Source: a phage. Taken from it: a stretch of 56,589 bases of DNA. A model generated the notes under the pieces. It had not been told where the DNA came from, made no database searches, and worked only from the letters and a program-made list of their open reading frames with translations. Below, piece after piece: positions 15,536 to 24,040 of the stretch (position 1 is its first letter; every line of letters begins with the position of its first letter). Position numbers and translations under genes: made by a program. The DNA is taken from the sequence record PZ445422.1. One strand, given 5' to 3'.

Positions 15536-15799
15536 TCAGATCTTACCTTCCTGCATAAGCCCTTCAACACGGGACATTTGATAGCGAGCAGGTTTCCAGG
15601 CTGCCAGAGCTTTCTCGGCACCTTTTAAAGTTTTATACGCTTTAATGCCCGGGACAATAGTGCTGCTTACCCCTGCGCCGTTGCCGTAATCAACCTCTTT
15701 AACAACACGGTATAAACCGTCGATTTGTTTTACTAACATACGTTTGAATGCAATAGCGCCAGTAGCTTCGTTTTTATAACGTTCCAGAATGCGAATCAT
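15536..15799 (-). CDS. hypothetical protein
   Basis: 87 aa; GGAGGTG RBS before ATG at 15799. Confidence 0.5.
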   Translation of the reverse strand: MIRILERYKNEATGAIAFKRMLVKQIDGLYRVVKEVDYGNGAGVSSTIVPGIKAYKTLKGAEKALAAWKPARYQMSRVEGLMQEGKI

Positions 15800-15825
15800 T
15801 TTGCACCTCCTGTAAGTTGATTATC

Positions 15826-19553: not shown

Positions 19554-19815
19554 AAAAATACCATATATAGGTAAAGAGATGATTCGATTCCCTGCTCCAT
19601 GGCTGGGAGAAGGACAATTTGAGGATGTATGCGCTTATTTTGAAGAGGTGGAATTAAAAGGTGGGATTACACAATATCGCGCATTTATTAGAGTCATGGA
19701 TGAGTATCAGTATATTGGCACATATGCCACAATGGATACAGCTTTCGTCACTATCGATAAAGTCAAGGATGTAATTACATCTCTGTTAAAAGTGATTGTT
19801 AACGAAGGTAAATGA
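19546..19815 (+). CDS. hypothetical protein
   Basis: ATG at 19546 with GGAGGAAA RBS (internal start of track ORF 19498..19815). Confidence 0.45.
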   Translation: MARKIPYIGKEMIRFPAPWLGEGQFEDVCAYFEEVELKGGITQYRAFIRVMDEYQYIGTYATMDTAFVTIDKVKDVITSLLKVIVNEGK

Positions 19816-22151
19816 TGGAACTGTTTCCCGCTGAAATTAAAGCTTTCCCACAATGGGCGGTCGCCGATGCGGATAAAAAGCCGCTCGTATGGGATAACGA
19901 TATTGGACGTTTGATGGCGGCGGACGTTACCGATCCGGATATGCTTATGACGTTTGAAGCTGCCAAAGGTTGTGCTGCTCATTTCAATAAACCTTATATT
20001 GGCTTCGTGCTTACTGCGCAAGACCCGTTCACCTGTATCGACCTGGATGTGAAGAACGCAACCAATGAACCGGATCCCAAGAAGCACACAACGCCGGAAC
20101 AGTTGCGCCGCTTCGAACAGATCATGACTGCGTTCGATACTTACACCGAAGTAAGTCGCTCAGGCTTGGGCGTCCACCTGTGGTTAAGAGGGAACATCGG
20201 TAAAGGTCGCCGACGTGATGGTGTCGAGGTTTATAGTCAGGAGCGTTTTATTATCTGCACTGGTAATCCTGTCTACAACAAACCAGTTGCAGAACGTGAT
20301 CATTACCTTACTATGCTTGTGAATGAAATTGATCTTCAGCGCAAGACATATGAAATTGAACTGGTAGAAAAAGATCCGGTAGAAGATGATGCAACTATTC
20401 ATCAGCGCGCACTTGAAGCAGACAACGGCGATAAGTATGCACGCCTATTCAATGGCGAATGGGTTGAAATGGGATTCCCTTCCCAGTCTGAAGCAGACCT
20501 TGCCCTTATTTCCATGTATGCATTTTACACAGAAAGTAATGAGCAATGTCGCCGTCTGTTCCGTTACAGTGCACTGGGCAAACGTGAGAAGGCTAATAAG
20601 AACAATGTTCATATTGACCGTTGTTTGCGTATGTGTCGCGGTCGCATGGAGCGTGAACGCATTGCCCAGGAAAACGTAGCGGCGCTGGCGCGGGATTACG
20701 CTGCTCGTATGCAAGCTGCACACAGTGCAATGCAGCAGGTAACGGAAATGCCTGTAACCACAGTCAGCCCGTCCGGTGAAATAGTAGTTGCAGAAAGCAC
20801 GTCCATTGATGCAACAGCTATTGAATGGCCGCCGGGACTTGCTGGTGAGCTTGCGAAGTATATCTACAAAGCATCGCAGCGTCCGGTGAAAGAAATTGCA
20901 ATCACTGCATCGTTAGCATTCTTGTCAGGTGTATGCGGTAAGGTATGGAATACTATCACCAACACAGGGCTGAACGGTTACTTTGTGCTCATTGCCCGAT
21001 CAGGTGTGGGTAAAGAAATGCTTCACGCTGGGCCCAGCTATATTTGTAAGCAGGTAGGCGAGCAATTACCGCAAGTGCATGAATTTGTAGACATGACTAA
21101 CTATGCTTCCGGTCCTGCCTTGCGTAAAAGTTTTGCGGATCATACTTCGTTTGTGAATATTAACGGCGAGTTCGGTAAAACCATTAAAGGTATGGCAACA
21201 GCTCAACCTGGCACTGCAAACTACACCCTGAAGCAAACTATTACAGATGTGTATCAAAAATCTGGTGCGATGGATGTTGTTGGCGGTATCGGATATTCTG
21301 ATAAGGCTAATAATACCAAAACAATGGAAGGGGTAGCGTTCAGCATTTTGGGCGAAACAACACCGGACACATTCTTTGAAGCGTTAACACGTGAAATGAT
21401 GGAAGACGGTTTCTTGTCCCGTTTCCACATTGTGCAATATGAAGGGGATCGTGTTCCTGCAAACGAGAATCCTGAAATTACAATGCCGCAGCAATTAAAG
21501 GACATGGTGTGCCATCTTGTTAACCACACGTTAGTGACAATGGCGAAGTTCCAGACCGTTACCGTCCAGTTAAGCTCTGAAGCGGAAAGGATTGAACGGG
21601 AGTTTAACTTGCTGTGTGATGAACACATTAACGCAACTAAAGACGAAGCTATCCGTCAGCCGTGGAACCGTGCTCACCTTAAAGCTCTGCGTCTTGCTTC
21701 CCTGTTAGCAGTGGGGGAAAACTGGATCAATCCTGTCGTTCAGCCCAATCACATGCAATGGGCGGTAGATTTTGTTACGCATGGGCAGGACATCATGATC
21801 AACGCATGGGAAAAAGGTACTATTGGCGGTGATGATGAAACGCGTGTGAAGGCTATCTGTCAGGTCTGCAAAGATTATCTTGGCGGTAAAATTGCATGCG
21901 ATCGTAAGGAGCTGCGAGTTGACGGTATTATTCCGAAGGCAACTATCACACGCAGAACCTACGGGTTAGCAGCATTCAAGAATCACAGGATGGGAGCAGG
22001 TACTGCAACAGACCTCACTATCAAACAACTTGTAGACATGGGCGCGCTTGTTCCGGTTACGCGTGAAGATGCGTTGAAGCGTAATTTCAGGGGATTGGGA
22101 TGGTATATAGACGAGTCAATTGAGAGTGTTTTCAAGGACTTAAGCAAATAA
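19812..22151 (+). CDS. DNA primase-polymerase (Prim-Pol) with C-terminal NTPase-like region
   Basis: 779 aa; N-terminal block GFVLT..DPFTCIDLDVKN and VSRSGLGVHLWL match Prim-Pol catalytic motifs; C-terminal region with P-loop-like LIARSGVGKE. Confidence 0.65.
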   Translation: MMELFPAEIKAFPQWAVADADKKPLVWDNDIGRLMAADVTDPDMLMTFEAAKGCAAHFNKPYIGFVLTAQDPFTCIDLDVKNATNEPDPKKHTTPEQLRRFEQIMTAFDTYTEVSRSGLGVHLWLRGNIGKGRRRDGVEVYSQERFIICTGNPVYNKPVAERDHYLTMLVNEIDLQRKTYEIELVEKDPVEDDATIHQRALEADNGDKYARLFNGEWVEMGFPSQSEADLALISMYAFYTESNEQCRRLFRYSALGKREKANKNNVHIDRCLRMCRGRMERERIAQENVAALARDYAARMQAAHSAMQQVTEMPVTTVSPSGEIVVAESTSIDATAIEWPPGLAGELAKYIYKASQRPVKEIAITASLAFLSGVCGKVWNTITNTGLNGYFVLIARSGVGKEMLHAGPSYICKQVGEQLPQVHEFVDMTNYASGPALRKSFADHTSFVNINGEFGKTIKGMATAQPGTANYTLKQTITDVYQKSGAMDVVGGIGYSDKANNTKTMEGVAFSILGETTPDTFFEALTREMMEDGFLSRFHIVQYEGDRVPANENPEITMPQQLKDMVCHLVNHTLVTMAKFQTVTVQLSSEAERIEREFNLLCDEHINATKDEAIRQPWNRAHLKALRLASLLAVGENWINPVVQPNHMQWAVDFVTHGQDIMINAWEKGTIGGDDETRVKAICQVCKDYLGGKIACDRKELRVDGIIPKATITRRTYGLAAFKNHRMGAGTATDLTIKQLVDMGALVPVTREDALKRNFRGLGWYIDESIESVFKDLSK

Positions 22152-22178
22152 ATAAAGGGCCTTTCGGCCCTTTATTGT
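22152..22178. terminator. bidirectional intrinsic terminator
   Basis: aaagggcc-tttc-ggcccttt hairpin flanked by A and T tracts between convergent genes. Confidence 0.6.
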
Positions 22179-22643: not shown

Positions 22644-22841
22644 ATGGATCAACAATTATTTAATATTGCTTTACAAGCAATAGTAGATACCGCAAAACAG
22701 GCTTATATTGAAGGTTATAATCAGTGTTTAATTAGTGCTGCTTATTCGCCTGAAGAACCTTCACAAATTGAAGAAGACTGGCAGAACTCTTCTGTAAAAG
22801 CTGCCTGTGATAGAATGATTCAAAACTTAAGGGGTAAATGA
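22644..22841 (+). CDS. hypothetical small protein
   Basis: ATG at 22644 with GAGGTG RBS (internal start of track ORF 22470..22841). Confidence 0.45.
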   Translation: MDQQLFNIALQAIVDTAKQAYIEGYNQCLISAAYSPEEPSQIEEDWQNSSVKAACDRMIQNLRGK

Positions 22842-23155
22842 TGGGAATTGTAAACACTATCTGTGAAGCAATTTATGCGGAGCTTATCCGTATTGAAACT
22901 AATCTGCATAAAGAAGGACGAAAAGAAATCAAAAGAATTCTTGTAGATTTCCCTACAGCAATGGATATTCGAAGAGATGGTCATTTATACTATTGGGGTA
23001 GTGAATACATCGACGAATGTGATGGAGGGTGTCGTATCCACATGGCTATTATGAATTACCCTATTGTTCCAACCGATCAAGTAACAGGTTTTGAGTTGAT
23101 GTTAAATGATGGTACTTTAGCACCAAAAGCGGCAAAGGGAACCGCGCAAAATTGA
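22838..23155 (+). CDS. hypothetical protein
   Basis: 105 aa; start overlaps previous stop. Confidence 0.5.
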   Translation: MMGIVNTICEAIYAELIRIETNLHKEGRKEIKRILVDFPTAMDIRRDGHLYYWGSEYIDECDGGCRIHMAIMNYPIVPTDQVTGFELMLNDGTLAPKAAKGTAQN

Positions 23156-23467
23156 AGCTTGCCATTCAAGACTGCATCCTTTAAGATAACCACAGTTAAC
23201 GAGGTTTAACAATTTAACAACATTAACTTAGTGAACGATGCTTAACTCAAGCCCTTGAAAGCGGTAGCTGTACCTCCTTACAGCAACTACTTTCGCTGGG
23301 CTTCCTGGAGCGGACAGGATAAACCCGCAACTTACTGAACGATGTGAACGATGTTTAACGCGACGGCGCCAGATGTACCAAACCGTCACCAGCCTTTGGC
23401 GAGGCTGTACAAGTAGGCCAGGATAGACGAAGACGGCAGTCAAAGTAAGCTATCCGACAATCAAGAG

Positions 23468-23498
23468 AGCCCAGGAATCCTTATGCCTGGGCTTTTTT
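23468..23498 (+). terminator. intrinsic terminator
   Basis: agcccagg ... cctgggct stem followed by TTTTTT. Confidence 0.6.
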
Positions 23499-23573
23499 GT
23501 TCCTTGAGATCAACAGAACTTCAATATAAAATTCTTTATGAAGTGTTTTACATTAAAGTTATGGAGACAAACA

Positions 23574-24040
23574 TGGCAGTAAATATTCGCGCTAAAGGTC
23601 AACGCGGTGAGCGGGAAGTATGCGATTTCTTTAATGCAATTTATGCCGAAATCTACGCAGAGCTGGGGATGCAGTTACCGGAGAAACCTATTGCTCAGCG
23701 TAACCAGAATCAAAGTGCGGTCGGTGGTTGCGACATTAGCAATACGTGCCACCATGCGGTTGAAGTAAAAAACCATGCTACGCCACAGGTGAACACATGG
23801 TGGAAACAGACTGTTCAATCCGCTAAAGAGCTTGGCAGATATCCAGTTCTGATGTATAAAATAGAACGTAAAGGATGGAAGGTTGTTCTACCGCTTAATC
23901 CAGTCGTCTTTAGCAATGGTGAGTGGCAGTGGTACGAAGTTAAAGATTCCATCCGCGCGGAGATTAGTCTTGATGACTACCGCATTATTTTTAAAGCGCA
24001 CGCGAAACAATGGTTAATTGATCGCGGTTCAATTCAATAA
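23574..24040 (+). CDS. Holliday junction resolvase, Hjc-like PD-(D/E)XK nuclease
   Basis: KGQRGEREV ... GGCDIS ... AVEVKN ... RYPVLMYK follows the Hjc pattern (KG..ERE, D, EVK, PVL); ATG at 23574 with GGAG RBS. Confidence 0.55.

Follow-up and report, generated by a model that had tools for sequence, protein, structure and literature searches.

What is encoded, if anything, in a gap of 417 nt between two genes of a lytic phage? The stretch of DNA analysed here (the window, 56,589 bases) comprises the entire genome of Escherichia phage GottfriedDienst (Bas21, MZ501071.1), in the reverse complement of that record, and the gap runs from the stop codon at 23155 of bas21_0063 to the ATG at 23573 of a nuclease gene. 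The phage is classified in the Queuovirinae, genus Seuratvirus, and the locus sits within a + strand block of genes for replication and nucleotide metabolism. An earlier reading of the sequence (the original prediction) had described a segment free of any supported open reading frame (ORF), with an element repeated three times and a terminator at its end, had left a discrete non-coding transcript and a leader or attenuator side by side as readings, and had named secondary structure, covariation and a comparison with related phages as ways to check them. We find that the segment is very probably a conserved structured RNA gene. The account that best explains the whole is that of an unannotated non-coding RNA gene of about 305 nt on the + strand, present throughout the genus Seuratvirus as a unit of its own and acting in trans through invariant loops, to which we assign a probability of roughly 0.55.

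As to the comparison with related phages, blastn found the segment in 35 phage records, all of them Seuratvirus, and it is conserved in all 35. It is present at full length with 97.8-100% identity in 29 records, it matches only up to position 23412 in five, and it is ~79% identical in Salmonella phage STP-SP5, all records other than the latter being at least 96% identical over the segment. Near-identical extra copies were found in three IMG/VR and seven metagenome contigs. Between GottfriedDienst and STP-SP5, the nucleotide identity of the RNA (79.6%) is on a par with that of the primase (79.3%) and nuclease (83.8%) genes, the values for the upstream gene and the dUTPase gene being 61.9% and 60.4%; thus, this non-coding segment is conserved like a core gene. 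The 105-aa protein encoded upstream is limited to the same 35 records, and its amino-acid identity is 42% in STP-SP5 and 58% in slur01, while the RNA segment of slur01 is 98.7% identical. The G+C content of the segment reaches 0.53, compared with about 0.35-0.45 in the flanks.

The only coding sequence annotated in the gap in GenBank, bas21_0062, is not conserved. Among 18 distinct complete variants, its frame is interrupted in L006/L124 and in L117 and is out of frame in STP-SP5, and its variable sites fall 6/9/6 on codon positions 1/2/3, with no third-position bias; the equivalent is left unannotated in STP-SP5, CAjan, and Seurat. A block of 27 nt, GACGGCGCCAGATGTACCAAACCGTCA, is identical in all variants, yet its + strand frame differs between GottfriedDienst and STP-SP5 owing to two flanking deletions in the latter, the first of 2 nt and the second of 1 nt. 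Since the frames shift while the nucleotides of this block stay identical, the constraint is on nucleotides and not on a protein, and the alignment reads in the same way throughout, with indels that shift every reading frame of the segment while the nucleotides remain identical. The view that the segment lacks a supported ORF has therefore held, and bas21_0062 and its equivalents in many records are probably spurious. The label "sulfatase-like" given to the region in record CSP1C is explained by a coincidental match of six residues, VWYIWR. In a scan of a genome collection, an 18-mer taken from the invariant block had 52 hits in very diverse bacteria, most of them antisense to a conserved coding motif read as sulfatase-like VWYIWRGN, and we judge these hits to be chance and irrelevant to the RNA.

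Signals for the start and the end of transcription border the segment. The promoter-like site on the upstream side begins 4 nt past the stop codon of bas21_0063, and the orthologous site of STP-SP5, TTGACA-17-TAATAT, matches the sigma-70 consensus at 11/12 positions, with the hexamers and the 17-nt spacing kept and the spacer sequence changed. On the downstream side, the GC stem and T6 tract that had been described as an intrinsic terminator are indeed there, and in the predicted minimum-energy fold the stem grows to 14 pairs through A-U and G-U pairing with the U tract. A consensus terminator scanner missed this terminator, as loops were limited there to 3-8 nt and this one has 10 nt. A second promoter-like site, that of the downstream operon, is retained in both types of 3′ module found in the genus (see below) and is an annotated promoter in SA126VB. 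Because this conserved promoter follows the terminator, we regard the RNA as its own transcription unit and not as the leader of the nuclease operon, although transcription from upstream genes would also run into the RNA gene. Of the two readings offered by the original prediction, it is thus the discrete non-coding transcript that gains, through its conservation, its borders, and the compensatory changes described next, whereas the leader or attenuator loses ground to the separate downstream promoter, the lack of a conserved anti-terminator, and the lack of a match to any model.

The check by structure and covariation also came out in favour of an RNA. The + strand has a fold with z = -3.8, and none of 100 shuffles is as stable; the z value of the minus strand is -2.1. 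From an alignment of 12 distinct full-length variants, RNAalifold derives a fold of 93 pairs, and in 8 of these both partners have changed with pairing kept. Our curated model has 55 pairs, 99.5% of its cells are paired, and it omits two long-range helices that other variants contradict, namely GAUGCUUA (23237-44) with UAAGCUAUC (23446-54), which cannot form in the alternative 3′ module, and CUUACU (23331-36) with AGUAGG (23412-17), which is broken in L006/L124. The curated model contains 8 double-change pairs, compared with 1.1 ± 0.9 in shuffles (0/500 reach 8), and sliding the partners by 1-3 columns leaves 0-2. Six of these pairs are in helix P1, one is in P2, and one is in the inner part of P5. 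One-sided changes yield G-U pairs and not A-C mismatches (Greed and STP-SP5 in P4, STP-SP5 in P1). The model has 40 G-U cells, and if it is read on the minus strand, the paired share falls to 93.6%; as G-U pairs are valid on the + strand only, the fold belongs to the + strand RNA.

The best-supported helix, P1, shows the clearest series of compensations: in STP-SP5, AGCCC/GGGCU is replaced by GGUCU/AGACC and GAAAG/CUUUC by GCAAU/AUUGC, and a C-G pair becomes U-A in L006. The pair C23311-G23327 of P2 is U-A in STP-SP5, and an A-U pair of inner P5 is U-A in PLYYY01, the outer part of P5 being counted in the model by three pairs only (23424-26 with 23450-52). In P4 the changes are one-sided, A-U to G-U in Greed and G-C to G-U in STP-SP5, and P3 is invariant, as it falls inside the 27-nt block. 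The terminator pairs are also invariant among the full-length variants and so carry neither support nor contradiction from covariation. A hairpin predicted in the A/U-rich 5′ region is lost in STP-SP5, where 8 nt are deleted. A tentative closing helix, J, would enclose P2, the repeats, P3, and P4. Within this core, the P4 loop UUUGGCG (23395-23401) can pair with CGCCAGA of the P3 loop (23367-23373) over 7 pairs, at a predicted -10.2 kcal/mol, a duplex matched by 15 of 2000 shuffles; both loops are invariant, and we consider their contact a candidate kissing loop. The internal loop of P5, GAA opposite AGUA, presumably resembles the loop-E or sarcin-ricin internal-loop motif. With about 305 nt and at least seven helices (Table 1), this is a mid-sized structured RNA and not a typical small RNA.

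Table 1. Features of the RNA locus and of the genes around it, with positions in the window
Feature	Position	Strand	Description
Primase-polymerase/helicase gene	19812-22151		Upstream; Pfam NrS-1 polymerase HBD domain and DUF3987
bas21_0063	22838-23155		105-aa protein of unknown function; directly upstream, stop at 23155
Promoter-like site, sigma-70 type	23159-23187	+	TTGCCA, 17 nt, TAAGAT; consensus match 9/12
Predicted non-coding RNA, ~305 nt	23194-23498	+	Putative 5′ end 7-8 nt past the -10 hexamer; 3′ end at the U tract
A/U-rich 5′ region	23195-23247	+	Probably single-stranded; five (U)UUAAC repeats at 23196, 23206, 23214, 23223, 23242
bas21_0062	23228-23389	minus	Only GenBank coding sequence annotated in the gap; judged spurious
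GAACGAUG copy 1	23233-23240	+	Before P1; invariant in all variants
P1	23250-23302	+	Long imperfect hairpin, 19 pairs; best-supported helix
P1 apical loop, ACCUCCUUA	23272-23280	+	Invariant while at least 6 stem pairs vary
Helix J (closing, tentative)	23303-23308 with 23418-23423	+	UCCUGG with CCAGGA; 6 pairs, 100% paired, one U-A to U-G
P2	23310-23328 (23310-13 with 23325-28)	+	GCGG/CCGC stem, 11-nt loop ACAGGRUAAAC
GAACGAUG copies 2 and 3	23337-23353	+	Tandem 9-nt unit UGAACGAUG; predicted unpaired linker between P2 and P3
P3	23362-23387 (23362-66 with 23383-87)	+	GACGG/CCGUC stem, 16-nt invariant loop
P4	23390-23407 (23390-96 with 23401-07)	+	CAGCC(UU)/(GA)GGCUG hairpin
P5	23421-23455	+	Outer GGAUAG/CUAUCC (23421-26 with 23450-55), inner GAC/GUC (23432-34 with 23439-41), loop GGCA
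Intrinsic terminator	23463-23498	+	7 G/C-rich pairs, G23469-G23475 with C23486-C23492; 10-nt loop; U6 at 23493-23498
Promoter-like site of downstream operon	23504-23532	+	TTGAGA, 17 nt, TAAAAT; 10/12, best in 4-kb scan; outside the RNA
Nuclease gene	23573-24040	+	Directly downstream, ATG at 23573

The 3′ part of the RNA exists in two interchangeable forms. In OddieOddie, SA80RD, VogelGryff, SA126VB, and Dru_SM1, as well as in one metagenome contig, similarity to GottfriedDienst ends at 23412, and an HNH homing endonuclease gene lies directly after the RNA gene in all of these (L003:2813-3425, L004:2822-3462). Their nuclease is only ~61% identical in amino acids to that of GottfriedDienst. The replacement of the 3′ module together with the nuclease looks like a co-conversion tract of endonuclease homing from a more distant donor, and a search for this donor returned only the same five phages as carriers of the module. 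The replaced 90 nt fold alike, with a P5, an A-rich spacer, and, at the equivalent place, a terminator of the same strength but of unrelated sequence (GCGCAGCGUGAAAACGUUGCGC and then Us). The alternative P5 stems are GAUAGGG/CCUUAUC in OddieOddie and AAAUAAGG/CCUUAUUU in Dru_SM1, with a compensated change between the two, and the GAA and AGUA strands of the internal loop are retained. From the sequence, the alternative module can also pair with the 5′ strand of helix J, as CCGGA with a bulged U. A joint P5 model from both module types was rejected, since MAFFT placed the inner stem out of register.

The clue as to how such an RNA might act is the apical loop of P1. Together with the next base, a C, this loop forms the 10-mer ACCUCCUUAC, which is identical to the 3′ end of the 16S rRNA of E. 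coli K-12 rrsB plus the first base of the spacer (L140:2193-2202, the comparison locus being 2.5 kb of rrnB with the leader, the 16S rRNA, and part of the spacer). The RNA thus carries the anti-Shine-Dalgarno tail of 16S rRNA (CCUCCU), invariant in all variants and unpaired in the P1 loop, and the only internal GAGGU (23201-05) is not conserved in STP-SP5. The two longest words shared by the RNA and rrnB are UUUAACAAUUUA (12 nt) and ACCUCCUUAC (10 nt), and 8-mer matches between them number 12, with about 12 estimated by chance. The anti-Shine-Dalgarno identity earns weight only because it is located in the invariant loop of a hairpin supported by covariation. A duplex of the P1 loop with UAAGGAGGU has a predicted energy of -13.2 kcal/mol, and this perfect 9-mer serves as the ribosome-binding site of two phage genes.

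In the mechanism that we propose, host RNA polymerase would start at the sigma-70-type promoter (23159-23187) and stop at the U tract of the terminator (23493-23498), producing an RNA composed of an A/U-rich 5′ region, P1 with its ACCUCCUUA loop, a core closed by helix J that holds P2, two to three AACGAUG repeats, P3, and P4, and a 3′ module with P5 and the terminator. The released RNA would then work in trans via its invariant unpaired loops, a reading that we favour because the RNA forms a unit of its own, in which a compact scaffold exposes the conserved parts as loops. The P1 loop could pair with the Shine-Dalgarno regions of mRNAs, blocking or tuning their translation, or else it might serve as a decoy that diverts a reader of the 16S 3′ tail, for instance ribosomal protein bS21. 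That the RNA acts in trans through this loop in particular is a tentative proposal, and the odds as we see them lie against it. A bolder version, in which the phage RNA displays an exact anti-Shine-Dalgarno copy to reprogram translation initiation in infection, by titrating a bS21-like factor or by occupying ribosome-binding sites, and in which the unrelated pyrimidine-loop hairpins of other Queuovirinae are functional analogues, is doubtful, about half as probable in our estimation. To our knowledge, such an RNA would be the first viral RNA that mimics the 16S tail.

Searches for a wider family gave the following results. No Rfam 15 family matches at gathering thresholds over the whole window (riboswitches, leaders, small RNAs, ribozymes, 6S, tmRNA, OLE, ROOL, and GOLLD included), and at E values up to 10 the interval 22800-23800 gives only two hits, which fall below the thresholds and owe their scores to the terminator (Thr_leader, 16.6 bits vs 55, and SurC, 14.4 vs 80). 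ARAGORN found no tRNA or tmRNA in the window. An nhmmer profile found no homologue among 80 IMG/VR loci with the same nuclease or among Nonagvirus, Vibrio, Klebsiella, Providencia, and Enterobacter phages, and a covariance model of P1 and P2 found nothing at E values up to 10 in 30 loci with the same nuclease. There was no blastn match to plasmids or to all complete E. coli genomes, and scans of IMG/VR and metagenomes for motifs and core sequences returned near-identical Seuratvirus copies only. The literature searches likewise brought up no description of an RNA gene for Seuratvirus or for Queuovirinae.

In some other Queuovirinae, for example Klebsiella phage K4PH164, the gap at this position is missing; others carry, immediately before the same nuclease gene, non-coding sequence that is unrelated to the Seuratvirus RNA and likewise finishes with a terminator. 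In Nonagvirus (Enterobacteria phage 9g, L008:2540-2983; L018-L027), an unannotated ORF of 91 codons with coding-like variation (L008:2540-2815) is followed by ~170 nearly invariant non-coding bases, which lie immediately 5′ of the nuclease gene and contain a terminator and a hairpin with ACCCCUUUUC exposed. The divergent Nonagvirus contig L025 keeps the loop motif, and its stems differ through covariation (GACAGU/ACUGUC vs GCGAGAG/CUCUCGC). Vibrio phage vB_VibM_83AMN has an unannotated gap of 488 nt upstream of the nuclease gene (L009:2513-3000), with a short A/T-rich repeat array, a terminator, and a 9-pair hairpin that presents ACCUCCC near 2902; the phage collection holds no relatives of this region. 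The presence of pyrimidine-rich loops at one genomic position in three lineages unrelated in sequence supports a role of the P1 loop in a suggestive but not conclusive manner. In Providencia phage PSTCR4, the gap upstream of the nuclease gene is 640 nt long (L011:2361-3000), with AGTGAA-type repeats and a terminator, and it shares the 12-mer AACTTAGTGAAC with 23226-23237 of the window; the nhmmer hit in this gap is insignificant (E = 9.4). We also considered a conserved module of a protein plus an RNA and found it unsupported, as the upstream protein of Seuratvirus shows no similarity to the product of the ORF that precedes the Nonagvirus hairpin.

Several observations weigh against a trans-acting RNA with an anti-Shine-Dalgarno loop. 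A 10-mer match somewhere in the 2.5 kb of rrnB is expected ~0.7 times by chance, and its anti-Shine-Dalgarno position was noticed afterwards. Extended complementarity to transcripts of the phage's own genome is no better than in shuffles, with a maximum of 12 nt, and a decoy would have to be expressed at a very high level to compete with ribosomes present in the tens of thousands. Moreover, the CCCC of the Nonagvirus loop would pair with GGGG and not with GGAG, and a generic Shine-Dalgarno target is thus no common denominator. As for the gene itself, the transcript, its 5′ end, and its 3′ end are all predicted from sequence signals, and promoter-like sites in a 4-kb scan number 7 vs 8.0 expected, so the site at 23159-23187 taken alone is no better than chance. 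Most of the covariation comes from STP-SP5 as the one divergent genome, with a few single changes elsewhere, and P3, P4, helix J, and the proposed kissing loop have no covarying pairs, which leaves them neither supported nor contradicted. Finally, the copy number of AACGAUG varies, which would be less expected of a fixed fold than of a role in protein binding or at the DNA level.

The repeats are at the centre of the two strongest alternatives. The element GAACGATG occurs in the segment three times, just as had been reported (23233-23240, 23337-23344, and 23346-23353), and once more in the 56.6 kb of the genome, at 30104. The genome-wide count is unremarkable (4 vs 1.8 expected; 9/100 shuffles reach 4); the presence of three copies within 121 nt is remarkable. 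The core conserved across relatives is AACGATG, relatives tolerate the repeat variants UAACGAUG, AAACGAUG, and GAACAAUG, and in Dru_SM1 the tandem array is three units long instead of two. ToxI-like antitoxin repeats are tandem units of ~34-45 nt beside an endoribonuclease toxin gene. A Type III antitoxin of this kind was rejected here, as the unit has 9 nt in 2-3 copies and no toxin gene is found by annotation or Pfam match among the neighbours (primase, PD-(D/E)XK nuclease, dUTPase, and hypotheticals).

The alternative that survives best, though we still consider it unlikely, is that the RNA is a trans-acting sponge or decoy for a protein, for example a regulator of the host that binds RNA, a toxin with RNase activity, or a defence system against phages, with AACGAUG, UUAAC, and the core as binding sites and the anti-Shine-Dalgarno likeness as incidental. 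Compact invariant cores, loop-loop contacts, and conserved internal loops are typical of protein-binding RNAs, and the RNA has such a core, possibly such a contact, and a conserved GAA/AGUA internal loop, in addition to short motifs repeated in predicted unpaired regions, including the two or three tandem UGAACGAUG units. The fact that an antisense target was not found in the phage genome points in the same direction. Nevertheless, neighbouring genes give no hint of a defence or counter-defence module. The 9-nt repeats are, in addition, too short for type III antitoxin-like repeats, and point changes in them are tolerated.

It is rather improbable that the segment works as a DNA-level element, that is, that the repeats are origin iterons bound by the primase-helicase or another protein and that the transcript activates or primes the origin. 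Its location in the replication module, ~1 kb downstream of the primase-polymerase/helicase gene, would suit an origin, and so would the five TTAAC and three GAACGATG copies clustered beside a 27% G+C stretch, the variable copy number of the repeats, and the other short A/T-rich repeat arrays at the same position in related phages. RNA-based phage origins are known as well (PMC7157519), and RNase H and ligase are encoded nearby. However, the compensated helices, with G-U pairs possible on the + strand only, point to RNA and not to duplex DNA, the strong terminator releases the transcript, and most of the conserved length (P1-P5) is free of repeats. The repeats themselves are unphased, with spacings of 10, 8, 9, and 19 nt, and they are partly lost or mutated in relatives, STP-SP5 having one deleted and another mutated.

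We give slightly less credit still to a role in cis, with the segment as a leader of the downstream operon that works by attenuation, as a riboswitch, or through a boxA-like signal for processive antitermination that loads Nus factors. The order of promoter, structured RNA, terminator, and genes is the one expected of a leader, but the conserved promoter between the terminator and the next gene is present with both module types, and riboswitch, T-box, and leader models remain unmatched even at E values up to 10. An anti-terminator pairing could be formed by UCCUGG (23303-23308) with CCAGGA of the 5′ arm of the terminator (23471-23476); it is the sole such pairing found, and it is missing in the OddieOddie-type module, where the terminator is unrelated. 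For antitermination, the 12-mer UUUAACAAUUUA of the 5′ region is identical to part of the boxA region in the E. coli rrnB leader, although a match of this length to the rrnB locus also arises in 16 of 500 shuffles. We rejected this stretch as a boxA: CGAGGUUUAACAA matches the consensus UGCUCUUUAACAA at only 9/13 positions, the four mismatches all fall in the 5′ GCUC half, and it fails a scan at three or fewer mismatches. These positions vary between GottfriedDienst and STP-SP5 (GAGUCUUAACAA in the latter), and boxB and boxC elements are not evident. Elsewhere in the window, in the early region, ACCTCTTTAACAA at 15693-15705 (+), upstream of an ORF that starts at 15817, is two mismatches from the rrn boxA consensus; it could be a genuine Nus-factor site or chance, with 33 sites at three or fewer mismatches vs 26 expected.

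We give almost no credence to a small protein as the product of the segment, whether from the minus-strand ORF of 53-71 codons (bas21_0062) that is open in many records and annotated in several or from a 21-codon + strand ORF that begins at 23351 with an AUG of the GAACGAUG repeats, given that the former is broken in at least three lineages and shows no coding-like variation, that the latter reads the invariant 27-nt block in another frame in STP-SP5, that neither has an upstream ribosome-binding site, and that the protein label of the region is itself a chance match.

With regard to the neighbouring genes, the nuclease matches Pfam PDDEXK_15 (phage PD-(D/E)XK endonuclease, E = 1.5e-13), and RusA is absent among its Pfam matches, despite the label "RusA-like Holliday junction resolvase" in several records. 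It is followed by the dUTPase, RNase H, and ligase genes. At 22151-22176, directly 3′ of the primase gene and where two convergent minus-strand small genes meet, there is a perfect palindromic hairpin of 11 pairs, which was scored as a minus-strand terminator and is probably bidirectional.

Little has been charted of the non-coding RNAs that lytic phages encode, and regions such as this one are either left blank by annotation pipelines or given spurious ORFs; the analysis corrects the annotation of ~35 genomes, both for bas21_0062 with its equivalents and for the "sulfatase-like" label. Among phage RNAs, this one stands out by its size and by the elaborateness of its fold. If its anti-Shine-Dalgarno-identical loop is functional, it would represent a new viral way to interfere with translation initiation or to exploit it, and even if the loop is not functional, the RNA offers a clean new family for the study of structured RNAs in infection. 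Bas21 belongs to the BASEL collection and infects E. coli K-12, a host that makes its RNA straightforward to study experimentally.

Several known systems resemble this RNA in part. RNAIII and RsaE of S. aureus are regulatory RNAs built of multiple hairpins, the apical loops of which are C-rich and pair with Shine-Dalgarno regions. Like them, the Seuratvirus RNA has its own promoter and terminator (both predicted here), several hairpins, and a conserved pyrimidine-rich loop on a long stem that is complementary to ribosome-binding sites; unlike them, it is encoded by a lytic phage of a Gram-negative host, has only one such loop, and shares no sequence or structural homology with them. For a structured RNA with an anti-Shine-Dalgarno mimic, OLE RNA is a precedent: its stem P6 has been described as such a mimic and as a binding site of ribosomal protein bS21 (PMC12054373). 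Like the Seuratvirus RNA, it is large, structured, and non-coding, with a conserved stretch identical to the anti-Shine-Dalgarno of the host 16S rRNA. In OLE, however, this stretch is paired with a Shine-Dalgarno-like strand, mimicking the duplex of the two, whereas the Seuratvirus copy is unpaired in a hairpin loop; OLE is also ~600 nt long, chromosomal, and found in Bacillota, and its Rfam model does not match the Seuratvirus RNA.

RNA-based replication origins include ColE1 RNA II. The origin RNAs of mycobacteriophage prophages belong to the same class (PMC7157519). These resemble the present RNA as structured transcripts in or beside a replication module, with an RNase H gene nearby, but the Seuratvirus transcript ends at a strong terminator. 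The boxA elements of rrn and lambda and the put RNA of HK022 are antitermination signals. As in those, a promoter-proximal element lies in an untranslated transcript, with 12 nt in common with the rrnB boxA region; in contrast to them, the GCUC half is missing, the element varies among relatives, and the downstream genes have their own promoter. Lastly, the phage small RNAs lambda OOP, P4 CI RNA, P1/P7 c4, and prophage DicF are antisense or seed-type regulators of 50-80 nt with known targets. The Seuratvirus RNA is likewise a phage-borne non-coding unit among early or regulatory genes, although it has ~305 nt and at least seven helices, no antisense target was detected in its own genome, and its phage is strictly lytic. 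A phage non-coding RNA with a promoter and a terminator is thus of a known kind, while this family is new, lying outside Rfam 15 and appearing in GenBank as a blank or as a spurious ORF, and its size, its multi-helix fold, its two interchangeable 3′ modules, and its anti-Shine-Dalgarno-identical loop set it apart from the classical phage antisense RNAs.

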